A DNA stretch of 57,063 nucleotides, filler included, from Sphacelaria rigidula (GCA_964200075.2; 8 parts of 8 records of this genome joined end to end with filler, not necessarily neighbours in it); one strand, 5' to 3'; numbered from the whole stretch's first letter, positions 3,501-57,063 are shown. The notes: generated by a model from the sequence alone, not told the origin. Numbers and translations: made by a program.

Positions 3501-3659
3501 GATCTCATCGATCAAGGGGGAGGTTACTTGTACGGCACTGGGCCGACAGATAGGGGCACGATTTATGAGTTGCAAAGTTTCTCGACCAATCAGAGTCTTT
3601 GAATACACCACAATGCGGCGACCTTTCTTCAAACAGATGAGAGATATGAAAAGCATGTA

Positions 3660-5785: not shown

Positions 5786-5877
5786 TGCATTTTATGTATG
5801 CCGGACCTCCCATTCCCCGATTTTTTTGGGTCACCATCTTATAGTAAATAAACCCTAGTTGATAACACTAACACTTA

Positions 5878-7046: not shown

Positions 7047-7146
7047 NNNNNNNNNNNNNNNNNNNNNNNNNNNNNNNNNNNNNNNNNNNNTTAATTAATT
7101 AANNNNNNNNNNNNNNNNNNNNNNNNNNNNNNNNNNNNNNNNNNNN
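7047..7146. other. Artificial contig spacer N44-TTAATTAATTAA-N44; also at 14193-14292, 21339-21438, 28484-28583, 35629-35728, 42774-42873 and 49919-50018
   Basis: An identical 100-bp six-frame-stop linker recurs every 7145-7146 bp. Confidence 0.98.
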
Positions 7147-14292: not shown

Positions 14293-14401
14293 CTATCGTA
14301 CTTTTCTTCCATACAGCTTTATCAACTATAGCTGGCAATCTCTTTCTTAGCATGTTCTTTACGTCATACTGCCATCGCAATTTTCTCATGTCTCTGTTTA
14401 A
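14293..14401 (-). mobile_element. LINE fragment, same family as 7147-10534
   Basis: NRDMRKLRWQYDVKNMLRKRLPAIVDKAVWKK matches NRNMRKLRCQYSVKNMQRKK at 9637-9730. Confidence 0.85.
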
Positions 14402-14643
14402 GACACTCGCGGTGCGCTTGTATTTGGGTTGCAGCGGTGTCAAGCAGTATGAATGAGCGTTCTTTATCGGAAGCAAGCGCGTTTGAACAGTCGGTGCTGC
14501 TATCAACGACGATTTCAAGTATAATTTCGTGAAAGGAAACGGCTCAAAATACCCCCCCCCCCCTATCGTAGCATGATGCGAGGTCAATGGTCTGATGACT
14601 GTGGCATGCATGATCATGAGTACACCCTATCGTAGCATGACTC
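14402..14643 (+). mobile_element. Two adjacent partial GAG-TIR MITE ends (subfamilies II and III)
   Basis: 14402-14577 matches the internal sequence of 20670-20918. 14581-14643 (AGGTCAATGGTCTGATGAC...CCCTATCGTAGCATGACTC) matches 21440-21510 and the reverse complement of 12961-13007. Confidence 0.75.
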
Positions 14644-20669: not shown

Positions 20670-20918
20670 GAGCCATGCTACCATAGGGGGGAGGGTGTTC
20701 GATTCCACGGGAAAACGTGCTCATAGATGCGTCAAACGACCTGAAACACTCGCGGTGCGCTTGTATTTGGGTAAAAGCGGTGTAAAGCAGTATGATCGAG
20801 CTTCACTTGCCGGGAGCAAGTGCGTTCGAACAACTGTTGGCTGCTTTCAACGGCAATTGAAGTGGAATTTCGTGGAAGGAAACGGCCCAAACTACCCCCC
20901 CCTATCGTAGCATGACTC
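20670..20918 (+). mobile_element. GAG-TIR MITE, subfamily II (249 bp)
   Basis: GAGCCATGCTACCATAGGGG ... CCCCTATCGTAGCATGACTC, flanks TTAT/ATAT. Internal sequence shared with 14402-14577 and 52702-52975. Confidence 0.9.
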
Positions 20919-34400: not shown

Positions 34401-35303
34401 GATGCTCCCGACACAGTGGAGAATGACGGGAATTTTGTGCTGGGAAAGGCAAAATACCGATACGACAACGGGCGAGCTCACGACACTCATCATTCTTCGG
34501 CACGCTGGGAAGCCACACTACACATCTCCACCTCTCTGATGTACCGCCAAAGGATCTTCCTCGTGACCCTCACGAGTAGCCTGACAAGGACAACAGCCAC
34601 ATCATATGTACTTGTACTCCAGAATCGGTCCTTCTAGGTATTGCACCGGTCAGATGTCACCTAGCTTGTGCGCACATTTTCGTCATCAGTAACAATGACA
34701 TTCACCGCCATCCACTGAGCGCATGCTTACCCGCTTCACTCCACCCTCGGTGATCTCGCGCATTCGCTTATTTCTCAAGTGATCCTCGGGTCCGATATGA
34801 TGGCCATCACAATCTCCCTTGGCGTTGCTCGTTCGTCCCCCGTCTGCCGCGTCCCCTGGACCTTCTTCCGGGTTCGTTCGGGTCTCCTCACTGGGCGGAC
34901 GATACGTGTAGCACTCCTCCGGAATGTTGGCGAGCGCAAACTGCATGCCCCTCACGAGACACTCCATCTCGTCCATCTGCAACATCCGCACCCCTAGTCG
35001 CCGGAGGAAAAAATCCTCAAACTTGAACGCGCCTCCACCGGTGCACCCCATGGCTTGAATATTTCGGTGCACTCTGCTGTTCGAGATTATTTCTACGGCA
35101 GACTCCATGAAGCGCGTCTCGAAATGAAAGAAGTGAAGCACGCCCCCCAGGGCATGACTATACGCGCTTAGGTGCGTATCTTTTACTCCGCTGTCCCCCA
35201 ATCTGGAAGCCTGGTCCATGAAGCTATAGAACTCCTTCAAGGCCTCTTGCTGCTCTGTCGTGTCGTGCAGGTTTCCGAGGCTGACAGTGCGCTTCATTTC
35301 CAC
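31451..35303 (-). CDS. PANK: Type II (eukaryotic, Fumble-family) pantothenate kinase, 5'-incomplete; exons 35303-34731, 34194-34093, 33508-33182 and 31705-31451
   Basis: All four exons are phase 0 with canonical GT-AG sites. Motifs LHFFHFET, CTGGGAFKF, DEMECLVRG, YPALVVSLGSGVSIIK, RVSGSSIGGGTYWGL, VDMLVGDIYG, ASSFGK, ISLNIGQVAYL, YFVGNFLR and FLEHEGYLGALGAFL. The N-terminal DIGG exon is missing because the contig ends at 35628. Confidence 0.95.
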
Positions 35304-35789: not shown

Positions 35790-36640
35790 TGTTTTCAGCA
35801 TACCTCTGCGGTTCTTTATATTGAGTTTCAAATTACAATTATAAATAATTGAGCTAAAAAATTGAGATAAGGTCCAAAAACAGTGTTCGTTTCGCGTCAA
35901 AACTGTCCCCAAACTCCGAAAATAATGAAGAAAAAGGAAAAAAATGAAAAAGCGGTGTTTATAAGCTTCATTGTGCACTAGCGGTTCTCCATGTGTGTGT
36001 TGTCATCCCATGTATTCTGGGCGCCAGTCAACACCTTTCTTCGGCATATGTGGGCGCATCAGCCGGGATCACACAAACGTCAACACAGGGGCGTTTTTCT
36101 TTTTTACTTGTTTTTAATATGCAACCTTCCTTGTGCGATACTTGCCTTTTTTTTGTCTCGGGAGGGGTTCAGCAGCCCCTCTCCCTCGTCGACCGTTCAA
36201 TCGAATTTTTGTGTACCCACGCCATAGTCGCTCTCCACTGTTGGGCATGGTGTGAGAAAAGATCCCACATCGCTCCGGGAATCGAACGCCACCACTCAAC
36301 CCTCAGAAGGTTACGAGGTTACCAACTGCGCCACCGGGGCGACCGGTCCACCTCCATACGAAATTTTATAGCATAACTCAAAAACTGAGACGCGATATCC
36401 AGGTTTAGCTAATCTAGCGCATCTGCTCGTAATATACTGATTTTATCATGTCAACTTACGTGCGATCTCGAGATAGATTGCGAATTAGGTGAAGGTGAGG
36501 GTACCTATCGTCTCCCCGTGCTCCAGGGAATGTCGACACCAAAATTCGTCATCCGCTGAATGCATCGATCGGGGGTTCCATAGAGATTCTAGTACAGACT
36601 CTGTATCTCTCAGGTACAGGAATCACTAGACATGGGGTTT
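35790..36640 (-). mobile_element. Interspersed repeat family C (copy 2), split by a SINE insertion
   Basis: The two halves are colinear with the reverse complement of 24960-25460 and are interrupted at CTCCAT. Confidence 0.75.
35993..36351 (-). mobile_element. tRNA-derived SINE, family 1, full length with 6-bp TSD
   Basis: A box TGGCGCAGTTGG, B-box-like CGTTCGATTCC and (CA)n tail. CTCCAT is duplicated at 35987-35992 and 36352-36357. Confidence 0.88.
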
Positions 36641-37428
36641 CATGAACAAAAAAACATGGGCCCAAAATTTTGAGCAGATGGGCACCTTCCTCTTGGTGGG
36701 ACGATTAATACGATATATGGATCATGACCCAACTCGTCCGTGTCGACAATATATTGCTTTGAGAGCTTAAATCCGTGTCTACGCTGTCTTCTAGCTCGTA
36801 CTGCCTTTCCCGATTTCCCCCCCCCGATGCTCGAAAAAATCGAGATTGGTGACTGCCATAAAATATGGTCCAAGACACGCCCCAAGACCTCCCACTCCCA
36901 TTCCGACCTATAACATCTCACACACAACCCCCTTTGTTGTACTTGGCTCTTCTACTGTAATAATTCCCACTATACAATTGTGTGTGCTGTTGTAGCGTTG
37001 TAATCCTGTCGACAGAAAATAATGCCGATTCACTTGTGGCGATAACAGATAGCTCCATCCCTGCCTGCCATCGACTAAATGTTCGTGGTGGACCCACAAG
37101 TCTGCAAAACAACATCCAACCGACAAACCTGCACACACACACGAACTAATCTGAGTTGAATTGTTCGAGCGCAGTCGATTTGTTTTAGCAAAACAGTTTG
37201 CTGGCCGAGTTTCCAGAACGATCTGAGCACAGATTTGTGGAGAAACTTCCAGTCCAATCAGTCCATTCACACTATAGGCACGTAAGTACGTCCGTGCGGC
37301 GAGGTACGATGCGATTGCAGGAGACGTCATACCGTTCATTACGACAGTGTTATCGAAACGCTTGCGCGAAAAGCAATAGAGTGTCATGAGCTGTGAGGGC
37401 ATATATGTTCATGCCGCAGCTGACGCAG

Positions 37429-40400
37429 GTGCGGTGGCAGCTTCGTGGGGCAGGAGATTCGCAACCTGCACCCGGCTGGACAGAAAATGCAAAAAAACGA
37501 ATGATGCCATGCCCCTTGGCCATGGCGGAAGATTCGACGCTCCGCGGTATGTACAGCATACATTAATAAATATTGACACATCACAATACTGCTGTGAGGA
37601 AAAAAAAGAATTTATCGTGGTACTACACTGCTTGCCCTCTACAACAGTGGTAGTAGTAGTACCGTATTGCGCTCCAGCCGTCTGGTTTAGAAAACACAAG
37701 AAAGCAACTATGGTTGAACACAAACATGGACAATACTCGTACACTGACGCAGTAAATGCTCAGAAATTATGTCATGGCCAAGTATGCTATTAGGCTAGCT
37801 TTTGGCTAGAGCAAAACAAGCGTCTAAAAAGCGTTTCGACCGGCCATCCCACCCTTTGGGATAGGCCTGCATGACTGGAGCTATTAGCGTGCTTTCCGAT
37901 TTTTCCCAAACAGCATTCCTGTACTACTGTACTGTACTCACACTCGAAGGATACTTTGTTCGAAGTCTGTTCTACTCAGCAATGCGCAATGCCTCATTTC
38001 TTCGAAAACAAATGAACCATGTACAAAATTTCGAAAACAACTTTGCAAACCAACGAAACACTTCCGATAACCCTTCTGTGTTCAAGTAACCTAGTTCATA
38101 ATACGTCGAGTCGGGTGTGGTTGGCTAGTATTGCGCAGTCTACGACTCACAATGAAATAAATACTTTTTACCACGCTGCAGAGTCGACACAACCACGTAT
38201 TGCCCACTCCCTCCACCCCTCCCGCACCGACTGCTTTTGGTCGACTCTCGAGTTTCAGGGTGCGCTGCATAATCTGACAGGGATATATCACTTTTTTGGT
38301 CAAGTGTGTGTCTTCACGCCAAGAACTAACGCACATGCTGTAGCCATTGTAAGAGCTCGACGAAACTGATGAAAGTAGTCTGATGAAGTGGGAGGGTCGT
38401 TTCGTGTGACGCTCCAAGATGAGGGCATAATCATCCCCGATTTGTTGTCCCGACATTCAAGAGCGAAAACATGAAACGTTGTGCAGACTTTACAACCCCA
38501 ATAGGCTACACCGACTGCTCTGTGGAGAGTAGTGAGGCATAAGCGATATGCTCTGCGCTATGCACTCAGACTCATTGAGCTCAACCAAGCAGCTGTTGCC
38601 AGTTAGTTATTATTGCGATGGTTGCTCATTGACCTTGGGGTGCGTTTTTCACGCATGGGCGGGGGTCATTTCTTTTTACTTCCGAAAACCCCAAAAAGTC
38701 GATAATGAGGTACCGAGGTAGCTCGGTGCCTCATTGTATTATTCCGCAAATCGAATGACAACTATTTATATTTCTGACCGATGTCGAAGCTAGAACTACA
38801 CTTCGCTGCTGCTGCCGCTGCTGCCACATCGTTGTGTACACCGCGAGAGGGCTGCCGCAACATGGCTACAAACTTGGCGAAGCAGCCGGCTGTCGCTCTC
38901 CATACGCGATTCTTCCTGCCGGTGATGTGAAATGCGTGGACGCAAGACTGCTACAATCAAATATATGTGTAGGACATCCATGTCGCACATACACGTCGGC
39001 ATTTTACCGTTTTCTTGGAAAAGCCGGATGTGTCCCGCAGAAGGTCAAGGCACATACTATCACGCGTGAAGCAAATGCTCTACAATGAGGCACCGGTGCC
39101 CATAGCTCAGAGTGTATTACATGGGCCAACCTAAACGGGGGCAAAACCTCCAATTCAAGGTACGCGCAGACATGCCCTTAAACTTCTGTCCATCTGATGA
39201 AGCGCGCTTACCTACTCAAATCATGGTTCGTATTAGGTTACAGTATGCATGATGCAATTGTGACATCGTTCCGTCATACATCTCGGTCCTTGTTGTCGTG
39301 ATGTCACGAGGTAACAACAGGCGACAAGCAAAGCGCAGGAGGAGAGCAGGTACGAAGGCGCACAGCGGTACTATCATGGTACTCCACCCCCAGGCGACAT
39401 GATATTCCCCCCATTGAAAGGAGACTACAACACGGTTTTTTTGTATGCACGAGGAACAGTCATGTTTCCTGTGATCATGAAGCACAAGGTGTAGATTTTG
39501 TTGTACGAGAGAAGCAAGGGGGTTGGCTTACAATTGTATCCGGGGTTTTTCTCGTGTCGAAAGAACCACAGGTGGTTTCTTTCTGGTAATACGATGGATG
39601 GTAGAAAACAACATGGATCAACCAAGCCGTACATATACAATGCAACATGCATTCCCACCCTACAGAACATCGCACCGTGTAGCTGACGAATCCATGACCA
39701 GACTTCGAGGCAATCGTCCAGCCCGCCGTCCTCTGGCTTCGGTAATGTGATCCGTTGTTTGAGCTGTTCCCACATTCCACCTCTGGCCCCTGTTGAGAAA
39801 TCTTTGCCGTTCCTCACTACTATATGCTCGTCGTGTATTCTTGAAATTACTGAACGTTACACCCGCTTCGAGATTTGGTTGGTGACGAACCGCAGACAGG
39901 TGTATTGTCGTACTCTCAGCCCACGGTTCGTCGTAGCAATTGACGCCTGCCCTGTTCTCGTTGTTATTGCCTCGTGTCTGAGTATCACATCACCATAATA
40001 TGATTCGGGTCATGTCCGGCGACTATGCGATGGCCCACCAAGTGCTCAGGCACGTGCGCAGTTGTGCGTGTTGTGGGTCGTCTGTTGGAAACATGGCGAG
40101 CAGTCTTGTGAAAGAGCCCAATCACCAAAAACGATAATTCGATTCTTCATTTCTATTTAGCAGGAAACCAAATTTGTGCGGCGTAACTGCCTTGGGAACC
40201 CGCCGCCTTCTCGCGGCGGTTAGACATTTATGTCTCCGTGCTCCCCCACAACAGATAGTACAGTGCAGTCGACAATAACATTACTCTACTAAACTGTATC
40301 ACTACCGCTGTCGAATACATGCTAGAGGAAAAACCAAAGCGATGACTCATGTTTATGTTACGCGATATAGGTGCTGCATGTTGCCTTTGCTCCGCTTCGG

Positions 40401-41015
40401 TTTAACTACTGCTCCAACAAATAATTGACTACATCAGCAAAGTAGACAAGGGGTCATAACCTGCTCTTGAGTTCTGGCGTATCTTGCTATATCCATTAGA
40501 ATTGGACCGTGCGCACTCGCAGCCCAAATATTGAAACAGAGAATTGTACTGACTGTACGGTAGAGCAGATAATACGTCGCTCTGTGGTTCTTGGGTGCCA
40601 TGAAGACAGAACCGGGCTAGTCACGTTTACAAACTCCGTCTCGCCTGCCTTACCCCTTGACACATGTTTTGATGATCGAATGCTCGTCGAGATGCAGCCG
40701 TCACTCCGTCTTGGTCTTGCACCGCATGTATGGTAGGGTTCTTCATACCCGTCCGTGTCGCTGGAAACACGCCACCGTCGTATTCATTGTACTCGTCCTA
40801 TGACGATGACTGGTGTTGCACTTGAGTCTTTCCTGGAGCCAGACTTATCGAACTACAAATATCTATAAACCGGTGGCAACTTGATCTCCACATAAATTTT
40901 CATAGGAGGTGAAAGGGCATAAGCCTTGTGCCGTGTGGTTTTAGGAGGTAGCTCAAGGATACGGCTGTCCGAACATGCATCGGAGCTCGTATGTGAAATT
41001 TATTGCTGCATTCAG
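37429..41015 (+). CDS. Putative exons of an unidentified host gene (37429-37546, 39666-39741, 40945-41015)
   Basis: Each has an AG acceptor and a GT(A/G) donor and the phases are compatible (...GRFDAPR|TSHRVADESMTRLRGNRPARRPLAS|EVAQGYGCPNMHRSSYVKFIAAF). No recognisable domain. Confidence 0.25.
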
Positions 41016-41314
41016 GTGAGCGCAGAGTGGGGGTGCGATATGTCAACCGTCGTATTCATTGTACTCGTCCTATGACGATGACTGGTGTTGCACTTGAGTC
41101 TTTCCTGGAGCCAGACTTATCGAACTGCAAATATCTATAAACCGGTGGCAACTTGATCTCCACATAAATTTTCATAGGAGGTGAAAGGGCATAAGCCTTG
41201 TGCTGTGTGGTTTTAGGAGGTAGCTCAAGGATACGGCTGTCCGAACATGCATCGGAGCTCGTATGTGAAATTTATTGCTGCATTCAGGTGAGCGCAGAGT
41301 GGGGGTGCGATATG
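40774..41314 (+). repeat. Recent 272-bp tandem duplication
   Basis: 40774-41045 and 41046-41314 are nearly identical; only two internal substitutions were seen by eye. Confidence 0.95.
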
Positions 41315-42251
41315 CCGAAAATGCTGCTGGAATAGCGATGAGCGGTCTTCGGTGTTCATAGCCAGCCAAGCCAGCCGCAACAACTAGCTTCAGTCTTTCG
41401 CGGTACTATTCGTAATATATCAGTCAGCTCCGTTTGTTATGTTGTCATGTACAGCACACAACATTAGCCAGCACGGCTTCTCGTAGCACCTGAAGCACCC
41501 GAAAAAAACACTTGCCTTTACAACAGTAGGCTTTATGGTCAGTATCCCCGTGGTGCAATTCTGTTGTCTCCTCCATGGATCTACCGGATATCAATCCTCC
41601 GAACCACCATTGTCGCACCGTCTTGACACTCTTCGTGAGTCTGTCTCACGGCAACCACACTCACCCATCATCCGGACACTTCCTTCACGCCGCGATCGCA
41701 TGTCGGCGGCGCTTCTGTGGCGTTTTCAAACAGAAAGGAACTCGAAATTTCGGTTCGAAACTGAACTCTATATTCAAAATTTCGACCCCTTCTGAACCCG
41801 TGACGGGGTGTAAACCTGTGAGCGTGTCAACTCCACGAAAACTTCCTACACGTTTTCGGGTTCACCTCTTCAGGGACTGGCAGAACAGTACCGCACAGTA
41901 GTTGTGGGACTGGTCGCACAGACCCCAAAGTATGCAATATCAGTTATTGGACGTACTTGTATCATCAATAACTAATTGCACAGACTCTGACGGCGTAGTT
42001 GTTCGCACGCAATTGAATACTTGTACGTGTCCGGGGTGTGAAACAATGAAATAATACAAGGGTTACCGTTACGGCAGGACAACCATGATACCGCGCGTAG
42101 TTGTTTGGCCGTGTCTTAACGAAATAAGGAAGGTGAGAAAGATCTCGTGGGAATAATTAGTTAATGGCGACTCAAGGCTCTGTTATCTCGAGAAATCACG
42201 CGGCGTTCGAATTCGGGGGGGAAATTACTACCCTCTGCCGACGGACCACCG

Positions 42252-42773
42252 CTCGCTCTGGTGGCTCAGCTGGAAACGTCAAATTCTTCTGACGGTTGGG
42301 TCGTGGGTTCAAATCTCGGTGTGATGTGTTTTTTTTCACATCATGCCCAAGAGTGGGGAGCGACTATGTCGTGGGTACACAAACTTCGACTCACCGGTCG
42401 ACGACGGAAAGGGACTACTGAACCCCTCTCGCGATGAAAATAAAGGCTATTTTTTTTCACACCATGTCCATGAGCGGAGAGCGACTATGTTGTGGGTACA
42501 CAAATTTCTACTCACCGGTTGACGAGGGAAAGGGACTGCCGAACCCTTCTCGCGATAAAAATAAAGGCAGGCAACGCAGAAGGAAGGTGGGGTACTAAAC
42601 ACAAATAAAAAACAAAAGAACTCCTGTGTTGACCGTCCTCCTGTATGACGCCGGCTGGTGCCCCCAAATAGACCGAAAGGCGTAGACCGGCGTCCAGAAT
42701 AGAAGGGATGACAACACACACACGCACACGCACACACACACACACACACGCACGCACGCACACACACACCCAC
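42252..42773 (+). mobile_element. tRNA-derived SINE, family 1, with an internal ~120-bp duplication and a long (CA/CG)n tail
   Basis: A box TGGCTCAGCTGG and B box GGTTCAAATC. The body segment TTTTTTCACA...AAAATAAAGGC occurs at ~42329-42447 and ~42449-42567. Confidence 0.85.
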
Positions 42774-42873
42774 NNNNNNNNNNNNNNNNNNNNNNNNNNN
42801 NNNNNNNNNNNNNNNNNTTAATTAATTAANNNNNNNNNNNNNNNNNNNNNNNNNNNNNNNNNNNNNNNNNNNN

Positions 42874-42941
42874 CACTAGACTACTGACAAGTCAGCGCTG
42901 ACTGGTCATTAGTCTAGTTGGTAGTCTCTTAAACCGTCACA
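42874..42941. mobile_element. Second copy of the 90-bp palindromic mini-element, cut by the contig start
   Basis: ACTAGACTACTGACAAGTCAGCGCTGACTGGTCATTAGTCTAGTTGGTAGTCTCTTAAACCGTCACA directly abuts copia RT sequence. Confidence 0.85.
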
Positions 42942-45900
42942 GACCATACCCACCACCTCGTCTCCCATCATGAAACGCAGGACACAGGGGTTAGACAGAG
43001 ACTCCTGGAAACCAATCCTTTTCGGGTCTGATACTGGCCTCTTGTAAAATGTTCTCGATGCCTGTTTCAATCCGTACAAATTCTTGTTCAAAACGGACAA
43101 CCTTTCCTGACATCGAACCGCAGCCAGGAGGCAACTTCATGAACACCTCGCAATCCAATTCCGACTGAACAAACGCTTGCTCAATATCCCAGTGGAGTAA
43201 TTCCAAGTTGTACTTGCACGCTAACACTACTAGCATTTGCAGCAGGCGAGAAAGTTTCAAGATAGTCCACAACATACTTCTTCTTGAAGCCCTTCGCTAC
43301 AAGCCTAGCCTTGGCCTTCACTATCTTCCGTGTTCCGTCTGCTCACTATTCGAAAACTTATCTAGCATCAATCACATTACCGCCTACTGGGATCTTTACT
43401 GCTAACGTGAACGTTCCTGCTCTTATCAAGCCTTCAACCTCTGCAGGCATGGCTCCATCCCAAATATTTGCATGCTTCGATTGCCGGGCTTCTTGAAAGC
43501 TACCAGGCTCTGACTCAACATTCTGAACGAGTTTGCGCACGAGTTCTACCTTCTCTTACTTCATCATTCTCACGCGCATCAGTATTAAAAGTAGCAAGCT
43601 CAGCGACATGGCTCGGACGACGAGCGGCTGGAGGAGGTGCCTCCGCCTCCACTTCCTGCTCTTCCGGCCCAATCGACTCTACATCACCATGCCCTCCCGG
43701 CTCCGCCTCCACTTCCGTCATCGATTCCTGGACCATAGGGTAACACTGCATCACGATTCACACGAATACGAATGGGTTGAATTCCCTTTCCTGCAAGCGG
43801 AAACACTTGAGCTTCTACATCGTCGTCACTATTCTCCCCTCCCTCTTCCGCGATCTCAATCGGCGGAGGAGGTTCCGGTGGAGGGAGCTGTGACGGCAAC
43901 GCCTCCTACGCCACATCTCTCGTTACCTGAATAGTCCCAGCCCTCGTAAGTACTCCATGACAATCACGCGGGTAGTCTCTCGAAGGACCGACAAAAAAGC
44001 AACTCTCACCTTTCGGTAGCAGCTTAGACGGTCGCTGCCACCTGCAGTAAGCCTGCTTCAAAACGGATACGGTCTGGCAGGACGAGGTTCTCCATACCAC
44101 ATCTCATACGGCGACTTAGAGTCAGGGTTAGCAGAGCACGCTGTGTGGTTAAGCGCCTCGCAAGCCTAATGCATTGCCTCAGCCCAGAGTCTGTCAGTCT
44201 TAGGTAACTGCACATGCCCAAACAGAACTTTCGCCTGAATACGAGCCGCCATAGCGGCCTCCTCAATCAATCCCAATGCACGCTCTGCAACACCGTTATA
44301 TTGGGGACTGTAAGCCGGAGTAACTCTTGTTTGATCAAAAGCTCATTGCATACGGATGCAAACTCCCCCCCGAAAAACTCCCCTCCATTGTCAGATTTAG
44401 CGAGCTCAACCAATGATGGGATTCCATCAGCACGCACACTAGCAAGGAAACTTCGGAAGGCACTCCCAGCGTCTAATGTACTTCTGAGGGAATACATCCA
44501 TGCACGCCTTGTGAAATCATCCTTCACAATCATGGGGTAGTGTTTACCCCCGACGGACGCAACGTCCTTCCTCCCTCCCAGGTCAACATATCCTCTGCCC
44601 AACGTTTTCTCCGATCTACGTTTAGTTTAATGAGCAATTCCTTTCCTAATAGCCTTCGACATCGGACATCCCGTACAAGCATGCATGTCACCGATCAACT
44701 CGGTACTTGGTCGTTTTGCAGTAGTACGAAGTAATCCCTTGTGCGAATAAGCATAAATGTTATGGAACTCCTTCACATCCATCTTCTTTTCATGCTTGAG
44801 GTTTGAAGGAGTGAGGGCAGCCAAAACCGAACCAACAGAGTCATCTCCCAGCCGATACGCAGTCGCAATTAGTATGCCATCGAAATTCTGAAAAGTAACA
44901 TGTCCGTCGTATGCAGTCATCACGCCATCAGGACCACCAAGATCATTCCATGACTTGCCATCAAAGTCTGCGCTGGGGAAATAGAGGTTATACCCTACGT
45001 TCGGAGAGTACAACACGTTCTCCAGCTCTACGAAGAATCCGCTGTCAGCAGTCACAAACACCAACTCCAGAGTTCCAGAGAGTAATACCTCACAAGTCAC
45101 GCCACCAATTCCTTTTATGTTCTTGTGGCAAGGCTTTACATCCTTCATACAAGAGAGAGAATCAGTCATGTGGAAAGCAGTACCCGTGTCTGCATACCAA
45201 TCTTCGACACACCTATCCTTCCTTATAAGAGAAGAGAATTCACGAACAGAATAATCACTGTACAAGCACTCACGCAGCATGGCATCGTAAACTGCTACCA
45301 GACACGTCAGATCACTCGAGTTGTTCAAGCTGGTTAGAGGGAGCAACAGCAAACGAGACCTCTTACCGTCCTCATTCTCGGCATCCTCGGATTTTCCGGT
45401 CTGGGTAGGATTAGCGATCACGCGAGCCAGGCAGTCCTTCCTCAAGTGACCCTTCTCTCTATGAACGATGAGTCATTCGGACAGAACACCACAAAGTTTC
45501 ACGCAAAGTCTTGTACTCGTGCGGCAGTCCCTCAAGCATCAGGTTGCACACCTCTCTGTCATCTTTCTTGAGTTCAAGATATCTACCATCACGGATCCAC
45601 ATGAAACGGTACTGCACCCAGGGTCATTACTGGGGCCCTTTCTAAACCGGAATCTATTGCACCGCTATTTTTCTACAGCAAAGAAGAACAGAACGAAGCA
45701 AGCAGCTAGATTACTGACTGTATAAACTTTCAACAACAATATCATGTTGGTAAGTCGAAATCAATGTCTGCAATCGGAATATCAGCTTCAGAAACAAACG
45801 CCTTATACATATTGTTGTGTCGGGCACCTAACAAGAAGTTCTGCGACCATGAGGGATACGACACATCGATACCATCAAAACCAGGAGCATTGGGAACTTG

Positions 45901-46700
45901 AAAAGGATCCCTACCCAACTTTTCTCCTGTGTCGGAAATGTCAGCCCCAGGAATCAGAGTGTTCCTACTGGCTACGTTTTCCCACCTCTTACTTGGCGGA
46001 GAAGGAGCGGGCGGAACAGAGGACTGACCTTAAGCCCCACCTACAGTCCCGATCGAACCAAAGCTTACTGCAGCAATAGAAGAACGACTTAAAGAAGATA
46101 CATGTGGATTCAAGCCTGAGTCTGCAAGACTGCTATTCCCAACCCACATGCTGGACACGCCCAAGCCTTGGGCATCGCCACCCATACCTCCCGCGGTCCC
46201 ACCAGTACCGAATTACAGTAAATACATGAGGATTCAAGCCTGAGTCTACGAGACTGTTACTCCCAACCCACATGCTGGACATGCCCAAGCCTTGGGCATC
46301 GCCACCCGTACTTCCCGCGGTTCCACCAGTAGCATCGTCAGAAAGATGCGTACTAGTCTCTGGTCCGTTGCCTCCCGGCGCGGCAGCTACAAAACCAGAA
46401 GACCCTACTTTCTCTCCCTGTTGCTCAACTAGCGACGGTACTACAGTCGCAAGCTGAGACAACTGTCTCTATGAAACAAACTCTCTCACCAACTTCCTAC
46501 GATCCACCCTCAGCTGGGTCAAGCGCAGGATCGTTGTTGCCCAGTTTAGCCATGACGAGGCAGGTTGATCAAGCCTCCCTCAATAGTCTCATGCACGGCC
46601 CAGGGGGACGAAGCAGCAGTCGACTGATGCGCTATAGCGTGTTGGTAAACTCGTAACTGCTGGAGAAAAATATGTATTGTTGTATTCTCGAGACCTTGGT
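42942..46700 (-). mobile_element. Ty1/copia LTR retrotransposon (gag remnant-protease-integrase-RT), inactivated
   Basis: Protease WYADTGTAFHMT, pre-integrase H..Y.YSH...CTGCPMSK, integrase YVDLGG...KDDFTR...KSDNGGEF, EPGSFQEA, and RT HWDIEQAFVQSELDCEVFMKLPPG and LNKNLYGLKQA. INT precedes RT. Many frameshifts; LTRs not delimited. Confidence 0.92.
46098..46331 (+). repeat. ~123-bp tandem duplication in the copia 5'/gag region
   Basis: ATACATG.GGATTCAAGCCTGAGTCT...CCCAAGCCTTGGGCATCGCCACCC...CCACCAGTA twice. Confidence 0.85.
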
Positions 46701-49700
46701 CCAAAGAGACGGGTCAGGAAAGTGGAGTGAGTAAGGTAGGCTAGCTTGCGTCACCTACATTCCAGAAACTGTAGAAACGACATGGTTCCCGCAATAGAAC
46801 TCGGACCAACGCACTTCCGTACGTACCACAAAAACCTCGGGTTGTTCCCCGCACCATAGATACCGTGCTCGGACTAACGCAGTATCCACGAAGAGTATTC
46901 CTACATAACCAACAGAAAGGACCGCGAATGTTCTTCGCTATTCTCAAATATACGATACTACAGCAGCTATCGCGGACAGTCCCATGAAAACATATTAAAA
47001 CAGTGTGGACGAAGACATATTATTGCACGACCAATACATATTTACCAATAATACATTGGATACGTTGGGGGTCGCATTGGTGAAACATATTGACAGGTCA
47101 ATATATTTTTGTGATATGATAAGGGTGAAGGCACCTTGTGAAGGGTGTAATGGTGTTCACCACGATTGTTCCAGGTTCAGACCTCTGTGTACGTTGTTTG
47201 TTTACTCGGCTCAGCAGCACAGGCTGACCACAGTCGCTCTCGTGTTGCTTTCACACAAGGAAACAACAAGCAAATAATACAGACCAGAATAGCACTTTTA
47301 TCACGCAATTGATTGTATCCAACTTCATCTACAGAACAGGGAGATACAACACAGATCGAAACAAGCTGAAACCGAAATCAGTGAAACACACCAGACAAAA
47401 CAGCAGCCCGACTACTGCTCTTATCTCCGGGACTCACTTTCTCGCGGTATGTAGATACTCCAATGGGGAACTGTTGAGTCGCAGCCAAAACCGGGAATGA
47501 AAAGAGAGTGGGGCTCGTAGGGGCTGCTTATTCAAACGTGTGTCGCCGCCCCCTAAATCAACACAAACTGAGGTCGTACCATATAATCCAAAAGCCGTGC
47601 TCCTCAATTCATGCCATGGTTGGGTTACTACATTTTTTCGAATTCAAATACATACTCTCCGTAGAACGTCAACCTCAAGGGGCAGTCAATTCTCCGCTAT
47701 TTGAATATGAAAAGGTCCATCATTCAATGTCACCTTTGTGCAAGATCATGGCTACGTCCTGCAGTCACATCATATCACATTTTGGGGCTGCGTGTATGTC
47801 AATATGTCGGAGATAAATATATATTGGGGCCGTGTGAGTGTGAATATATTGCCCAATCAGGGTATCAGTACACGTATATGTAGCGACGTAGCGTGTGTTA
47901 CAACATATTACCCACCCAGTATAAGCTGAGTGGACTCATCGATGTGGAGTATACATTCCATCAATCCATATTGTTCAAGTACTTTACTGTGCCGCGTCCT
48001 AAGACCCATGCCGTCAAAACAATCTCTTCGTGTAATTCGCCACGTAAATATTTCAATATGTTGTTGGCGTGCAGGGTGTCTACACGAGAGCCAGTTCGAA
48101 TGATTTCGAGAATTAAAGCAAGCGCAAGTGTTGCGGCATCCCTGTGGGATATTTCGAAGTATATACTCGAGGGAAAGTGCGATCCAACTCATTTTTTACC
48201 TGACTCTTTGGCTGTGAGGTTACGTTGGCTGATAAATCGGCATCACTCAATTTGACTCAAACAATGCCATGATCCGGGGCCAGCTAACAAACCAGGAGTG
48301 TTGAACGTATTCCAAGATCCAAGTTCCGGTATTTTTTACTGTAAATTACGGTCGAATATACCGGGAGTCTAGAGTTTGAGATACCTCTGTTGTGTACGAG
48401 CTAGTCAGCTCTCAAGGTATGTACTATTTTGTGACTGTAAGCTGCGCAAATAACGAATGGCCACCAGCTGCCTACGGAAAAACACACATCTGTGGCTCTT
48501 TGCTGTCCACGGGAAAACATGCATATGTGGCTCTCTGCCCCCTACACACCACCCCAAACCCCCTTCCTCCACCGCATAATAAACTAGCAGAGCGACTGTT
48601 TGCGTCAAAAGGAGACAGTCATAAGCAGTAGAAAATAGACGCATTGTTTTGTAGAGCAGGTCGGCAAATCGCTAGGGACGAGTACTGTGCTGATTCGACA
48701 AGGTCAGACGCTGGAGGTAGTTGTGGGATCTCGCAGGGGTCGAGAGACAAGGACTGTGACGTCTTGCCGCGGCAACCGGTTGCGGCAACCCGTGTACTGG
48801 ACGCCGACAAGACGGCAACCGCCGACAATGCGGTCCTGCAGGGACATCGGCCCTGCAAGATCCCGCCAACCTCGAAGGCTATGCGATGTTATAAGTGTGG
48901 TGCACGCTTTCAAAAAGATCCAGATGCAATGAATGCCGGGTGCAGATTGGCGAAAGCTTAGAAGAAAGCCGCAGGAGTTCGCATATATGGCTACGGAGAG
49001 CTGTCGAATGAATTTGATACATGTGTATTGGCCGGAAAAATATGGTGTCAGGAGGGCCAACCCGGTATATAAAGTTCTTCCGATACCTATCTGGCGACCG
49101 GTGCGGTGCCGTTCATCCCCTTCACAGTATGTAATACATCTTGGCTCAACAGTGCGACCGCAGGAATCGCGGGTCGATCCGCGCCGTTTGGTACCCCTCT
49201 GTTCACCGGTGCTATGTTGCTTATACCCTGGACAAAACAAAATTTTCCAATAAGATACCAATGATTTATATTGGAGACAGCGCAAATGTTGTCCTTTGAA
49301 TAGAGAGGTTCATGAAACGTTTTGTCAGATCTTAGAGTCAGAGCGGAAGGGAAAATATCCGGTAACGGTGCACTTTCCGTCATGAAGTTTTTTTCGGAGA
49401 GATGTTTTCAGAGTGAGAATCCCTTTTGCACCACGTCACTCTGAAAACCGTTGTTCCTCCTCGGGGTTCATAGCGGAATGAAAGAGAACCATGCCCACCT
49501 TCACCACCATGGTCACGTCCAGTTTAAAGCCAATACACCCTAATAAGCGAAGTGGGACATTTATCATCCATCAAAACTTCCATACTTAGCACCATAGGCC
49601 ATTTACGAAGTAGAAAAGCTTGGCATCGCAATCAGAAGAACTCCTTGACGCCGCCATGGTATCAAGAATCCGCTTGGTTGTGTTGCGTGAAAATTCCGAT

Positions 49701-50574
49701 GCTCGACAGGTACACGTTGGGTGGAGTTCCTCATTCTCGCCAGCTTTAGCAGGAAGAAGACGGTGGGAACGATTCGTAGTCTACAGTGCATAAGCAGTTC
49801 TACACCTGGCTGCAATTCCATCCCGTGAGAGATTGTAACGTCTTGCACCTCCATTAAACAGCCAATCATCTATGTTGAGGATGGTGCTTTTGATTGAGGA
49901 TGAGAACCCGGAGGATTANNNNNNNNNNNNNNNNNNNNNNNNNNNNNNNNNNNNNNNNNNNNTTAATTAATTAANNNNNNNNNNNNNNNNNNNNNNNNNN
50001 NNNNNNNNNNNNNNNNNNTCAGTTCTCTCTGCTTACAATGCGACTCGAAAATAACTTCAGCAACGTGCAGCTATGTACTGCCTGCATTGTCCACGAGCGT
50101 GCACACAACTCCGTTGCCCACCGTACCGCACGCAGTTCCGTCCCTGATGACTGCCATGAAAGAAGATGCACTGTTTTCGCCAACAAAAAATAAATAAAGC
50201 ACTACCCAACTACTTTCGTGTATATATCCCTGCGCTCAACTCATGTTCTATGCTGCAGGGTTGCGGTGGTAGCTGAGAATGCGTTGGATGGAGTTTGCAT
50301 GGTCCTGCGGAGGGTGTTATTTGGCGTGGTGGTCTGAAAGACAAGAGTCAAGTGCCGCTTCGCACCTTTCGACTGCATGTTTTCGATCGAAAAAAAATGT
50401 TTTTTCACTCCTTGCATTCTTCTCCGCGCGCCGCTATTTACAATTTTGAGTTGAAGCCTTCGAAAAACATAAACGCGGTGGACCTATCAGATAGGCAGAA
50501 AAAACTTCGACCGCACTTTTTCGATCGAAAAAAAAGCGCTAAGACACGCCCTGAGAGATACGAGAGGGAGGTAT

Positions 50575-50829
50575 ATAAAAAAGCGGCTGTGATTGGTCTA
50601 CACATTGTGCCGCTACGACACGGGCAGCTGCTACCGGCAATGCACGAGGATACAGCAGCTCCGGCGTGCTGGCTCAGGTTGTGTGTCCCAACCTGCGCGC
50701 ACCCGCCTGGCGTGTCTTGCCCGACCACAGCCCCCGACTATACCTGAAGTAGCAGAGAAGACTCAACAGACAGCTGTACAGCCGTCACGCCACGATTGTT
50801 TCGACCTTTCTTTGTTTCGTCAGCACCTA
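50575..50829 (+). repeat. Interspersed repeat family B (copy 2)
   Basis: Colinear with 3660-3912. Confidence 0.8.
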
Positions 50830-50855
50830 TCGAAACAACGTGTCCGCACAAAGGG

Positions 50856-51078
50856 TGTAATGCGTGAGAGGACCGCGTGCTTAGAGGATCGCGCTGTAGT
50901 TCAAAACACCTCAGTATCGACGTTTCTCAAAACCAATCGGGCCAGTCCCTGCAGGTACTACGCCCCTGACCATAACCTCGACACTAACCCCAACCCCAAC
51001 CCCAACCCCAACCCTAACCATGGGGATATTCAAATTCCGATGCGGTCCTCTAAGCACGCGGTCCTCTCACGCATTACA
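50856..51078. mobile_element. MITE with 37-bp TIRs (TGT...ACA) carrying telomere-like (CCYAAC)n repeats
   Basis: TGTAATGCGTGAGAGGACCGCGTGCTTAGAGGATCGC / GCGGTCCTCTAAGCACGCGGTCCTCTCACGCATTACA, with internal CTAACCCCAACCCCAACCCCAACCCCAACCCTAACC. Confidence 0.88.
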
Positions 51079-52325
51079 AAAGGTATGACATCTATACCAT
51101 GATATATATACCATATATATATATATATGTCATACCCTTTGTGTCCGTAGTACATACACGCATGATGAATGATGCAGCAGTGGGTCATTGCAGCCTCTGG
51201 GCACAGCGTATTACAGCCTATGGGCTCTCGCCATCTAGCTTCAAGCTGCAGTCTATAGCCCCCCCCCATCATCTACCATCAGTCGACATTTGAAATCACA
51301 TTATCACGAGACTGTCTTCTGCTGCTTTCACTGTTTACCCCTCTAAAACGCTGTAGGTCGTGCGCTATACGCTGCACAATGCACAATGTACAATCAAACC
51401 CACGGTACAACTATTGCGCAAAATATACATCACATTTTTCAATTCTACGTAGCATCAAATATGTACAAATAACATACAACAAACAGGAACGTTTGGCGGA
51501 TCAGACCCGCAACCATGGCATTTTCGAGTGCTGCAGTACTGCATTGAATATTCAAGCCCGTCCGGTGACGAGTGACGCCATGGGTCGTAGAGAGCAGTTT
51601 CAAGCAGCTGATACACAGGCTGCAGGAGGCGCGTCAAAACAAAATCGCAATTTTATGCGCGTTTTGAGCACATGATAAGCTTTTGAAACATTTTGAACTA
51701 TTTTAAAGCTTTTCGATAAAAAGGCTTAGTTAACCCTTAGCCCGCGAGGTTAGTCTCCTGTTGAATCGGCATCAATTTCAAGTGAAGAAAAGTATGCATG
51801 ATCCAGAAAGACTGATCTCACGGTCTAACGATTAAGCCCGAGGACCTCAAGTTGAACTCAACCTCAAGTGCGCTTACGGAGGTGCAGAGTGAAAAAACAG
51901 GCCTTCATTATGTTTTTATGGGAGGTTAGGCCGTTCTTGTAAAAAAATGGTCGCCACCATACTCGAACGCCCGAGATCAATGAAAAAAACCCATAAAATC
52001 CAACCTCCCGAATTCCTTCGGGACTTCACAGACAGCTGTACTTCATGCCTGTTGATTGTTCATGCCAAATTTCACCGCCCAACTCAAGAAACAAAATTGC
52101 GAATTCGCCTGCAAATTACAAATCCGCTTGTAGGCTGGCCCAGCCTGTATCTCACCCCAACAGTAACCATGAAGCACCATCACAGAAGTACTCCACGTCC
52201 AAGGGCATTCTGATCTCTGGTTGGCCATGATTTTGCCCGCACCGCGGTTCGAGCATGTCAGACAATAACCACCGCCCGTAAATAAATGCGTGTCGACGCG
52301 CCTATTTCGACACTGCATATGTCAG

Positions 52326-55300
52326 GAATCGCGGCGGCTGTCAGGCGAGGAAAGAGTCCGACCGCGAGCGAACTCTCCTCGCTTACCTGGATTGGTATGC
52401 CGACGTGTCCGGTGAGCTCATGCCCCACGAGGATGCGGTATATTTTTACATGCGCAACAAGAAGGTACGTACAAATAGCGGTTGGCGAGTCTCTGACGTA
52501 TTCATCCGTAGTCCCGCGTGCGCGCTCAGCAGCTGCACTTGCAAATCTTATTCGTGCCGTTAGGAAAGCCGCTCCCACCACGCAGTGGCGCAACCGCGCG
52601 GCGTTGTCAGCACACTCACCGAGACTCGCCATCCGCAATCGATACTTCTTGTCCAGAAAAAGGCGCGCCTTTCAAACGTTTTCCGTCACGTATCTTTCGT
52701 CGAGTCACGCTACGAAAGGCAGGGAAGTGTTTGAACCCACGAAAACATTGGTCCATAGATACCGCAGACGACCCAAAACGCTCGCGGTGCACTAGTTCTG
52801 TGGCAAAAGCGAAGCAAAGCAGTATGAGCGAGTGTTATTTATGTAGGACAGCGCGTCGGAACAACCACTACTGCTATCGACGGCAATTTCAAGCACAACA
52901 CCATACAAAAAAAAGGCCCGAAATTCCCCCTTCCACTCCCTCCCCCCTCCCCACTGTCCTACCGTAGCATGACCCTCTCCACTATCGATTCCACGCAAGC
53001 GCAGATTCGCGCGATCCATGGCGTTACTTATTCCTCCGATGCACCGGGATGTTCGGCAGGAATTGTACGACACTTACGTGGCAGAGGCGACTCGCGCCGG
53101 AGCGGCAGCCGTTAGCAAGGCCTATTTTTACCTCACGCTGCGGAAACGCCGTCCACACTACAAGATACGCTCCGGATGCTCGTTTATCAAGTGTTACAGC
53201 TGCACGCTTTTTCACGACACCCTGAATGGGACAGCAGGTGTGAGGGTAACGGCGAACCCCGACACGATGAAGAAGGCCGCATTGGGGCAAGCTGAGCATA
53301 TGAAGGTGAGGACATCGTGAGCTTATTCTGTATGCAGCGTCCCCACGACGCAAAAATACCGCGAATGGGCTACGACAGCCCAACCCCCAAAAGTCATGAG
53401 GAGACTCTGGCCTCGTACTCTTGTTGAGTAACTTGGTGTTGGTTTAACCGCGAGAAAAACGCGCATCCATGCACTCAACGACAACTAAATTGCGCACTTT
53501 TCTGCGCCGGGCTACGCCTCTGGTACGCCGAGTTAGATTTTTCACATATTAGCTGCAAACAATCTGTCACCATCACCTCCTGTTCATGTATTTCCAGGAT
53601 GCATCTTCACCACCCTCGGCTTGTTCAGGACTCAAGACCTTTTGTGATCGTACAGTTGCGCTAGTAGGGCGTGGATTTGGACGCCTCGTCCATTGTGTCA
53701 CTCCCCTCGCCCAGTACCACTTCATCCTCCTCTGAAGGCACGCTATCCCGCGAGTAGAGTGCCTCAGTCGAGCCGCGGGCGGCAGACAGGTCTTCCCGGG
53801 CCAAAGCACGCGTATTTGTTGAGGTGTCGCGATCGAGAAGTGAGTTTACCCAATCCCGCAGAGCCTAGTGCACCACCAGGCGCCCCTGGAAATGCCGCAC
53901 GTCGCCACCTCGCCGCTCCTTCAGATGTTGATGACAGACCGACAGCGGCTGACCACCATCAGCTCCGGTGCCATTAGAGCAAAGGCGAACATGGAACCAC
54001 TCAAGTACGTGTCCATGCAAGCAGACGCAGCAGCCCAAACGGCATTCGCGTTACCGATGTGCTCGCCGTTGACCCTCGGCACAGATAGGTGAGAGAGCGA
54101 TTATCGCGACAGCACGGATAACGAAGCATCATTCCCCCCCTTCCCCTTTGTATTTCAGTCCGATGCGATGATATTTCCCTGCATATCTCCAGGCCGTACA
54201 CGTGTGTTCTACGCCGTTCTGTCATCGTCTGCGCCCCCCCTCGCTTCAAATTTTCCCTCGCTTTTCTTCAGCCCCTAGAATTGGACGATTCCTTATACCT
54301 TCATTCTCTGCCCCTCATCTCGAAAAATACAAGGGCACCACACAGTATCCTGCCCGGAATATGCTGCGTTCTGGTGCAAACATCTTGTGTGAAGTGTGAC
54401 GAATGTTCCAATGTGTTTTCTCACGACCGTTTTGCTGCAAAGACGGTATTCGGAGAATTGTCTCTTCCGAGACCGCAGGTGGTGTCAAGGCATATATCGA
54501 GTTACTTATCGCCCTTCGAGGGTTTCTGTCATGAGCCGGGACGCCATAACAACTACGTGAGTAACTGATTCCCTCAATATCCATTCATGTTGCTTCAGTG
54601 GTGCATATGACTTGTGCTCGTCGTTGTTGGCGATCACCACATCTGGCAGGGGATACGCGGAGCGCCAAAACGTTATGGCAGTACTTGTGGAAGGGCAGTT
54701 CGTGGGATTCTTCCTGTCTTCCCTCACAGTCGGAGGAGGTGAATCCCTGCTCTCCCACGCGATGTGCACGCACTCACGGCATTTTTGAGCCAGACACCGC
54801 CCGCGATGAGCTGCGCACCGCGGGGGGTGACACTCGGCTATCTTGCTTTCTTATCCGAGCAATCTGCTCGGGATGCCTTTTCGTATCCCGACCGAGAGTA
54901 AGAGATGAGTTGTTACGGCATTCCTCGTAGCCAACAACCCCCGAGAATACTGACATTCGCGCCCTGACGCCGTCGTTGCTCGCCGCTGTGCAGGGAGCAA
55001 TCTCATTTGCACTTCAATCCACCTCGCGCTCACCCGATTATACGACTTGCACTGCACCAGCGACACACCAGCTTACATCGATGAGCTGTATCTGCAACTC
55101 GACAACTGTGTTGGTGAAAATAAGAACCACATCGCGCTGGGATACCTCGGATGTCTTGTGGCCCGTGGGACAATCGGCCGCGTGGAGATTAATTTCATGA
55201 TGGTGGGACATACCCACATCATGATAGACCAGGTCTTTTCGAGGTGCGTCGGGAATATCCTTGCAGACAACAGTGACGAGTGGGGGAAATTATGTAGCTT

Positions 55301-57063
55301 TGTGTCACGGGAAAAAATGGTCGTTCCTTATACGAACCGTAGTGAATCCAACCAAGACGTTGATTTTATCTCGTACACGAACGGACCCACCCACCCGAAC
55401 GGACCCACCCATCACAAGACCCGATGATGGTTACATCATCTACCCGCGACCCCCTGTTCCTCCCCGTGACGACGTCAAACTAACTCGTAATTTATCCGCG
55501 AATACGACAGGGGGCAAGGAGACATCATCCCCACCGCACTGGGAGGGATGAACGAAACCGTTTGCCTTCTACTGTGATACTGCAGGCGTGAAACCGTACC
55601 CATCACTCATTACTCCCGCCATATTTTGAAATTGTTTTGTCGTTCACGTTATCGTATTTTTTTCAGACGAGATATCTCACTGCACGAGTACCTCTGCCGT
55701 TGTTGACACGGGTTGCACAAGTCATGCGTTGCCTCCACAGACGCCGTGGGCAAAACCTTAAGAGCAGATGAAATACCGCCTCCGGCAGCGATATTCCACG
55801 CGACACGGTGTCCAGATATATGCGGTTTCGAAGCGCCGTAGGTGGACTGGACGTGAATCCACGATGACCCACAGCACACGTACTTACGCTCCAAAATAAC
55901 ATAACAACATGGGTCGAACAAACCGGCCTGATTTCGTACTGGCATATTCAGGGATATGTGTTATGCGTACAGCGAGGTGGCGATGAGAAGAAATTTAGAT
56001 GTATATAGCAATAACCGACGACAAAAGCATTGTAATTGTTTACCAGGATTTCCATTCACTGCAAGGGGGTTTGGCTGTTCACGAGAAGGCAGCAGGCGGA
56101 AGCTTTTCGCAAGGCATACAAGGCACTGGAGGTGTTCACCACTCTTCGCTCCCTCGGCAACTTCAAAGGAGCTGTCGGTGGAGGTGGCCGTGTGCTGCCC
56201 ATTTGTGACGTGACTCAGCCCCGTTCATTCGAAATCCGCCCAGCGGGGACGAAGCAGGTGACCGTCGGCATGAAGAAGCACATGCATGCTACAGTCTTCA
56301 CGGGAAAGACGGCCGCCGGGATCTACGAGGGAGCCCCTCACCCGCTCTTCTGCATGGGTGTTCCAGATCTGGAGTGCGCACCTCCGTTCGACCTGAAGGA
56401 AGCGGATGCCGCACAGCGAGATAACATACTGGCTCGCTACAACGCCGTCCACAGTCGGCTAGCTGCCCTCTGCCCCCTCGGTGCGTTGCACCTCTGGCAC
56501 CCCAAGTGATGACACTGTATCCTGATCGCTGTGTACTCTATTTATTTTGTTTTCGCTGCGGACGGCGGGTCCAAGTTTCTCACCCATATTTCTCATATCC
56601 TTTTCCCCACCGCAGGAGCGCATCCGAGCCCTGAATACCTTAGATGGACTGCCTCCACCCTCCCGTGCGACGCGCAGCTTTCGACAAACAGCAGGCCATC
56701 AAGGACGACATGGCGACGTCCCACCGACTTCTGGCCGCGAAAGGCTCAGTACCGTGGAACCTCCCGTGTCATTGGTTCAAACGTAATGGCCTGCAGTCAT
56801 CTGGAGGGTCACGGGAAGAGAGAGCGGGGGCAGATGGGGATGTTGATGTAGTCGAGGGGTCTGTGGGGGGGCAGAAGGCGCCTGTCGGTGAGAATCCGGG
56901 AAAAGGGGGTGTCCATAACTTAGTGCTAGGTAGCGGGGGCGACGGAGATGGCAATCCAGCAGGGTATGTTCCCTCGTTCGACAAGGGACATCTTGTTTTC
57001 TTTCTCGGTGACAAAGCTCCGTTTTCGGTGGGTAGGGTTACAGACAAGCGCGAGGGGACCGAT
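52326..57063 (+). CDS. Intron-containing DDD-type transposase (Sola-like / DUF7869-type), 5'- and 3'-incomplete; exons 52326-52464, 53060-53305, 53925-54088, 54650-54738, 54994-55243, 56047-~56480 and ~56644->57063
   Basis: The first six exons join in frame through canonical GT-AG introns (phases 0, 0, 2, 1, 2). Motifs: YLDWYADVSGELMPH, SKAYFYLTLRKRRPHYKIRSGCSFIKCYSC, YVSMQADAAAQTAFALP, VMAVLVEG, GSNLIC, LYLQLDNCVGENKN, FMMVGHTHIMIDQVFSRIS, QPRSFEIR. The last junction is uncertain. Confidence 0.8.
52702..52975 (+). mobile_element. GAG-TIR MITE, subfamily II, inside an intron of the transposase gene
   Basis: GAGTCACGCTACG ... CCTACCGTAGCATGACCC, with internal CTCGCGGTGC...AAAGCAGTATGA...ACGGCAATT shared with 20670-20918. 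Confidence 0.8.

Follow-up and report, generated by a model that had tools for sequence, protein, structure and literature searches.

The 3′ part of a 57,063-nucleotide (nt) stretch of DNA from Sphacelaria rigidula (GCA_964200075.2; eight parts of eight records joined end to end with filler, hereafter the window) very probably contains the greater part of a transposase gene, carried by one member of a DUF7869-type family of cut-and-paste DNA transposons that is present in many copies in a brown-algal nuclear genome. The gene lies on the plus strand and occupies positions 52326 to 57063. Six exons, located at 52326-52464, 53060-53305, 53925-54088, 54650-54738, 54994-55243, and 56047-56480, are each preceded by AG and followed by GT, and join to 1322 nt. 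The frame read from 52327 runs through 440 codons without a stop, as a preliminary description of the window had proposed, and the other two frames contain many stops. The five introns between them (52465-53059, 53306-53924, 54089-54649, 54739-54993, and 55244-56046) are 595, 619, 561, 255, and 803 nt in length, respectively. The preliminary description had ended the frame at 56480; its six exons are real, but the gene does not stop there. A sixth intron of 197 nt (56481-56677, with the GT at 56481 and the AG at 56676-56677) is followed by a seventh exon (56678-57063), which we placed there because P0154, a partial S. rigidula protein, joins the residues of exon 4 straight to the residues encoded from 56678. 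The seven-exon frame comprises 569 codons without a stop and 1707 coding bases without a frameshift, and is still open at the window end, where the gene is incomplete. A frameshift in the window copy, considered on account of an extra C after 56490 in other copies, was dropped: position 56490 lies inside intron 6 according to P0154.

Exon 5 (54994-55243) alone matches the Pfam family DUF7869 (PF25273) with 75.9 bits against a gathering cut-off of 26 (E = 4e-21), covering profile positions 38-112 of 192, and this places the gene in the family type that the preliminary description had named. The other six exon pieces, scanned singly, gave no Pfam match above threshold. Pfam lists DUF7869 as a family of unknown function, and our literature text search found no paper mentioning it within the collection searched. 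The motifs read earlier from the DNA are all present: the CxxC motif at 53192-53203, which has the family consensus F..C..C, the ENKN and VGHTH strings, and Asp codons at the three candidate catalytic positions (54024-54026, 55101-55103, 55227-55229). In a 67-row alignment of the family, 16 columns show a conservation of 90% or more, and exon 5 of the window has the same residue at every one of them (Q.DN....NKN and GHTH...DQ.FS). Searching 1.84 billion cluster representatives with a profile yielded 3836 proteins at E ≤ 1e-3, 892 of them at E ≤ 1e-10. When long family members were scanned with Pfam, DUF7869 was found in 15 of 15, with no other family above its cut-off. The nearest named relatives, from which a brown-algal host is deduced, are all from brown algae, namely Sphacelaria, Choristocarpus, Undaria, Ectocarpus, Cladosiphon, and Pylaiella, and the closest of these homologues are present as several fragmentary, mutually divergent predictions per species. 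A protein of Pylaiella littoralis (P0039), 467 amino acids (aa) long and with a full N-terminus, represents a second, distant DUF7869 lineage; therefore, brown algae carry at least two diverged lineages of this family.

The spliced product was compared with a family profile built from 67 members, mostly long proteins with a single open reading frame (ORF), including intron-less relatives and six brown-algal fragments. It aligns in one collinear stretch over profile positions 5-500 of 599, with 372 bits and E = 3e-115, a score to which near relatives contribute a part through the six fragments. At five of the six junctions, the profile columns are conserved and free of gaps. Individual proteins also run through the junctions without interruption. 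P0154, which is 83-84% identical to the window and contains exons 1-4 in one piece, crosses the junctions 1/2, 2/3, and 3/4; P0006 crosses 3/4 and 4/5; P0001 crosses 4/5 and 5/6; and P0010, an Ectocarpus protein that aligns to model residues 240-561, crosses 6/7. The preliminary description had looked to transcript reads for the junctions. One of them, 52464/53060, is bridged by a contig of the public run X1 (GT..AG, 595 nt skipped), and the other junctions are unbridged by contigs. No public run is on record as RNA; the runs X1-X4 are guessed to be RNA and the kind of X5, X6, and X8 is unrecorded. The X1 contig is ~93% identical to the window and therefore comes from a paralogue, and such a joint is listed for X1 and not for the three other runs. 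In X1, the intron bins 53360-53917 and 55406-55963 are without cover and others have very little, an observation that carries no weight in the argument. A member of the family is thus probably transcribed and spliced.

Could the exon chain be an artefact, in which unrelated open stretches are tied together by chance GT..AG pairs and no spliced gene exists? A single contig-bridged junction, in a run of guessed kind, and six pieces of seven lacking a Pfam match of their own would agree with this. However, the product is collinear with intron-less relatives over profile positions 5-500, brown-algal proteins span every junction, and the two other frames are rich in stops. These sequence comparisons refute the artefact, with practically no chance left to it, and the spliced transposase gene is the reading that we follow below.

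The fold was examined on P0082, a 697-aa protein from the liverwort Riccia sorocarpa in the 67-row alignment, and is carried over to the window by profile alignment. The AlphaFold model of P0082 has a mean predicted local distance difference test score (pLDDT) of 74.1; between residues 130 and 490, nearly all 10-residue blocks reach at least 84 and most at least 90. Its secondary-structure elements follow the order β1-β2-β3-α1-β4-α2-β5-α. In a VIA-align comparison with 48,161 solved chains, the highest Z scores were 9.8 for the integrases of simian immunodeficiency virus and prototype foamy virus, followed by Mos1 (9.6 and 9.5), with Metnase also among the best and 9.3 as the lowest of the five. 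These five best chains superpose on P0082 with a root-mean-square deviation (rmsd) of ~3-3.6 Å over 134-174 residues. The top 22 rows are all retroviral or retrotransposon integrases or the Mos1, Metnase, Sleeping Beauty, IstA, or TnsB transposases (Z 9.8-7.4), mostly with an rmsd of ~3 Å over 123-174 residues and with 8.6-11.7 Å for three rows. The matches span residues ~123-618 of P0082, mostly 242-428, and 19 chains have Z ≥ 8; with unmatched models usually reaching Z 7-8, the result is clear but not overwhelming. The top Foldseek matches of P0082 are also RNase H-like enzymes, with weak E-values, only two of which are at or below 1e-3. The RNase H-like fold that the preliminary description expected is thus predicted for the window protein from its relative.

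Three aspartates occupy the catalytic places of this fold in the P0082 model. D271 is situated at the end of β1, D352 after β4, and D394 at the start of the helix after β5. D271 is conserved in 56 of the 56 rows covering its column, D352 in 66 of 66, and D394 in 65 of 66. The window codons starting at 54024, 55101, and 55227 align to D271, D352, and D394 via the profile alignment, so the three candidate aspartates named earlier fall at invariant or nearly invariant family positions. The spacing between the second and the third Asp, 42 residues, is short. Projected onto the exons, the first predicted catalytic Asp at the end of strand β1 is encoded in exon 3, and exon 4, which aligns to the family profile, would cover the region of strands β2 and β3. 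Exon 5 encodes the DUF7869 core with the second Asp (DNC..ENKN) and the third Asp (GHTH..D). Exon 6, which also aligns to the profile and is 63-66% identical to P0001, encodes the region past the catalytic core.

Residues 120-207 of P0082 resemble winged-helix domains, and their counterpart in the window would begin in exon 1 and end in exon 2, the exon that encodes the CxxC motif and is matched by P0154 with 83% identity over all 82 residues. At the other end of P0082, a conserved module of β-strands extends from residue ~614 to 697 with pLDDT values of 80-95. Exon 7 of the window, which encodes the C-terminal region and aligns up to profile position 500 of 599, reaches only the start of this module. 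Some truncated paralogues from Riccia bear the UniRef name 'BAH' or 'Chromo domain-containing'; Pfam scans of the paralogues so named and of exon 7 found no BAH or chromo domain. The C-terminal module may be a chromatin-targeting part.

Taken as a working scheme, the gene would be transcribed and the host spliceosome would remove at least six GT-AG introns. The product is predicted to possess an N-terminal winged-helix-like DNA-binding part with the CxxC motif, then an RNase H-like core in which the three aspartates would hold metal ions for cleavage at the element ends and strand joining at a new site, and a C-terminal extension that would continue beyond the window end. The element would move as DNA with its introns copied along, and paralogous copies would share introns for this reason. 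Catalysis we infer, and this copy may or may not still make a working enzyme or move.

The copy number was assessed with contigs of the runs X5, X6, and X8, which cover introns as well as exons at 90-99% identity. The number of different contigs of one run at a single intronic site is 10 at 54270, 7 at 52925, 6-7 at 54480, and 6 at 54641. X5 places 3089 contigs on a 5564-nt stretch, 315 at 99% identity or above, 1070 at 95-99%, and 1704 at 90-95%, a count that includes the short high-copy repeats at 51686-52243 upstream of the gene. The introns occur in many variants, as the exons do, which argues for a repeat that spreads as DNA with the introns as part of the repeated unit. Among 30 listed differences in 52326-57063, 11 are exonic, with exons making up 36% of the bases, and 4 of these 11 are synonymous; in this small sample, 30 of several hundred differences on the stretch examined, there is no sign that exons are protected relative to introns among the copies. 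Internally deleted forms exist as well. One is an X1 contig, the deepest of the pieces displayed for that run, in which 54085 is connected to 56830 through 7 filler letters. In the other, P0154, exon 4 is followed by exon 7; the frame is preserved at this joint, since the combined length of exons 5 and 6 is 684 nt.

These observations bear on the choice that the preliminary description had left, between an active intron-rich DNA transposon and a domesticated transposase, i.e., one host gene that descends from a DUF7869 transposon, has been kept for a cellular function, and has ordinary host introns. In favor of the host gene, 569 codons are open, the nearly invariant family residues are all kept, there is probably a transcribed and spliced family member, and the intron sizes are host-like, as had been noted: 197-803 nt compared with a median of 524 bp in Ectocarpus (PMC12477816). 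However, up to 10 variants per site in one run, in introns as well as exons, the exonic share of the differences among copies, small as that sample is, the internally deleted forms, and the several fragmentary, mutually divergent homologues per brown-algal species make domestication very unlikely. The intron-rich DNA transposon, in contrast, is supported by the many exon and intron variants, by the internally deleted forms, and by relatives with defined termini.

Terminal inverted repeats (TIRs) of the relatives were searched in 54 of 80 metagenome loci. In locus L011, TIRs of 37 nt enclose a 7.6-kb unit (98-7691) that contains an 890-aa DUF7869 ORF, in L026 TIRs of 34 nt flank the DUF7869 ORF, and in L074 TIRs of 22 nt flank it, with AAAA of low complexity on both sides. 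L011 also has a second ORF of 566 aa on the opposite strand without a Pfam match. Matching flanks, as expected of a target-site duplication (TSD), are present in one of these three complete distant elements (L074) and in neither L011 nor L026. A right terminus of the L011/L026 type was found in 11 loci, where the similarity ends at the same base and is followed by 10 different flanks. Two further loci, L034 and L056, were set aside as TIR elements on account of subterminal repeats and low complexity, respectively. In Riccia sorocarpa, dozens of paralogues with 50-98% identity are distributed on many chromosomes. The distant DUF7869 relatives are mobile and TIR-bounded at many insertion sites.

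Several points weigh against reading the window gene as part of such a mobile element. The fold was modelled on P0082, to which the window protein itself is ~25% identical; a contig bridges one junction of the six, in a run whose RNA nature is a guess; and the contig counts come from coded public runs that are not tied to the source of the window. The window contains no second copy of the element, and the 3′ end of the gene and both element termini lie outside it, so that neither TIRs nor a TSD of this element came to light. The 569-codon frame is open although the DNA and that of the nearest transcribed paralogue differ by ~6%, which would fit a gene under selection. No in-frame ATG lies upstream of 52326, so the six-exon model lacks a start; in a tblastn comparison of the window with 57 relatives of at least 450 aa, no match upstream of 52300 had an E-value below 0.02, and Pfam scans of 118 ORFs of at least 60 aa in 36000-52330 found only Copia fragments and no upstream exon. 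The preliminary description had called the gene intact. Its frame is open, but searches for a start codon were fruitless and the gene continues past the window at its 3′ end, so that intactness is presumed at best.

The copy may instead be an immobile relic, 5′-truncated or defective, that looks intact because it is young, makes no transposase, and does not move by itself. In addition to the missing start and the fruitless upstream searches, the gene is preceded by a patchwork of other repeats, the copy represented by the spliced contig differs from the window by ~6-7%, and the differences among copies look neutral. Nevertheless, the 1707 coding bases contain neither a stop nor a frameshift, all six introns retain their GT..AG borders, none of the three Asp is lost, every one of the 16 nearly invariant residues is kept, and little would be missing, as the conserved part of the profile begins at exon 1. 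Moreover, a short ATG exon is possible at 52227-52246 on the plus strand. This speculative candidate, read from the sequence, would start with the ATG at 52227, end before the donor GT at 52247, and join 52326 in phase via a 79-nt GT..AG intron; its sole hint is an X1 contig (record 1) with 29 extra letters beyond 52326, where its match to the window stops, which points to an upstream exon. We consider a relic unlikely, though a good deal less so than domestication, and retain the reading as one copy of a multi-copy DUF7869 transposon.

Intron 1 of the gene contains an interspersed repeat at 52702-52930, of which two ~70% identical copies lie in the window at 20670-20858 and 14400-14556. This is probably what had been described as a miniature inverted-repeat transposable element (MITE) inside an intron: the repeat is there, but the MITE character is only partly seen, in a weak inverted pair of 19 nt (52475-52493 and 52621-52639). 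An inverted-repeat search in 50020-57063 found local pairs and a single long-range pair rich in A/T, none convincing as a TIR. Upstream of the gene, a MITE-like unit of 223 nt (50856-51078) has 37-nt arms that are 97% complementary and encloses telomere-like CCCCAA/CCCTAA repeats at ~50985-51020. The segments 51730-51828 and 52093-52150 show a summed contig depth far above their surroundings and many loose contig ends at their borders, and are probably very abundant short repeats. Scans for tRNA genes and Rfam families in 50000-57063 gave no match.

Elsewhere in the window, an intron-split host gene for pantothenate kinase (Fumble) is located at ~33107-35300 on the minus strand, in two ORF pieces with Pfam E-values of 5e-41 and 8e-24. 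A broken Copia-type pol on the minus strand (42994-45472) has its RVT_2, rve, and Pol_BBD domains divided among three ORFs, and a separate RVT_1 fragment was matched by Pfam on the plus strand at 8456-9055; both agree with the earlier remark that the retroelement ORFs are broken. Paired runs of 44 N, 12 bases apart, recur every ~7145 nt, at 7047, 14193, 21339, 28484, 35629, 42774, and 49919 (7047-50018 in all), and are more suggestive of regular masking than of gaps in the assembly. There is also a run of 10 N at 10535.

The present evidence indicates that DUF7869 is the catalytic part of a DDD transposase with a wide distribution. DUF7869 'genes' in gene sets, such as the fragmentary brown-algal predictions and the dozens of Riccia proteins, are accordingly to be viewed as transposon fragments. 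The element adds one more spliced DNA-transposon family to the brown algae, and repeat annotation based on ORFs will miss such genes. The practical value of the finding lies in annotation; by itself it opens no new biological question.

The intron-split state of the gene resembles that of known brown-algal transposons. In the curated table of supplement file 1 of PMC12477816, most autonomous DNA-transposon families of Ectocarpus, from nearly all superfamilies, are noted with 'spliced gene'. An intron-split transposase is therefore ordinary in brown algae, and this state is the brown-algal norm rather than the mark of a hidden host gene. The TcMar, Harbinger, hAT, PiggyBac, KDZ, EnSpm, and MuDR families of Ectocarpus share with the window gene a spliced gene, host-like introns, multiple copies, and other repeats nested in introns (PMC12477816), and differ from it in the transposase family, which is DUF7869 here.

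In the case of Tc1/mariner transposases (Mos1, Metnase, and Sleeping Beauty) and retroviral integrases, the model of P0082 suggests the same RNase H-like fold with the acidic triad in the same places. The best Mos1, Metnase, and integrase chains reach Z 9.3-9.8, and Sleeping Beauty reaches Z 8.1 with an rmsd of 4.8 Å over 174 residues. However, there is no sequence similarity between the two groups, DUF7869 alone reaching its cut-off in the 27 proteins and pieces scanned. Compared with mariner transposases and integrases, the DUF7869 proteins are much larger (700-1000 aa) and additionally have a CxxC region and an extension at the C-terminus.

Zator, which Bao et al. 2009 reportedly linked to PF07592, offers a further comparison, as one DUF7869 cluster in the ESM-Atlas has PF07592 (bacterial 'transposase 36', DDE_Tnp_ISAZ013) on 11% of its members. 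PF07592 gave no match in exon 5 or in 26 other family proteins and pieces, in scans at E ≤ 0.01 to 1.

Sola enzymes are said, again after Bao et al. 2009, to be DDD transposases with 4-bp TSDs. The DUF7869 proteins likewise have a DDD triad: the third residue is Asp in 65 of 66 rows, and the window gene also encodes Asp there. The right flanks of the relatives give an indirect likeness, the fourth base being A in 6 of 10 distinct flanks. In contrast, a clean 4-bp TSD is absent from the three complete distant elements, one of which is compatible with it (AAAA, of low complexity). Ectocarpus has DUF7869 proteins. According to supplement file 1 of PMC12477816, Sola1-1_Ec32 is 21.5 kb long with AACCG..CGGTT termini and a TSD of 4, and Sola2-1_Ec32 is 4.6 kb long with a TSD of 4 and 'possible introns'. 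The termini of L011 and L026 begin with AACAC and AACAT, sharing AAC with the AACCG of Sola1-1_Ec32 (PMC12477816). Sola was without a Pfam model in 2017 (PMC5751038), which would fit a recent 'DUF' entry. In the sources consulted, Sola is the only curated autonomous superfamily of Ectocarpus without a recorded Pfam model, most others being listed in PMC5751038. The 566-aa ORF of L011 lies on the opposite strand, a layout reminiscent of Sola1-1_Ec32, whose accessory gene is likewise opposite-strand (PMC12477816). A ParB/methyltransferase accessory gene like that of Sola1-1_Ec32 was not seen upstream in the window by Pfam scans of the ORFs.

The DUF7869 elements might also form a large, unnamed branch of DDD cut-and-paste transposons outside Sola, present in plants, animals, brown algae, and protists, which we regard as rather improbable. 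If so, a winged helix, a CxxC region, an integrase- or mariner-like core with the 42-residue D-D spacing, and a C-terminal β-module that might steer insertion to particular chromatin would be united in its transposase, and the brown-algal lineage would be its intron-rich form. Compared through indirect features rather than through reference Sola sequences, the DUF7869 element of the window and its relatives are, in our opinion, somewhat more likely than not to be members of Sola, in keeping with the Sola-like character first suggested for this gene.

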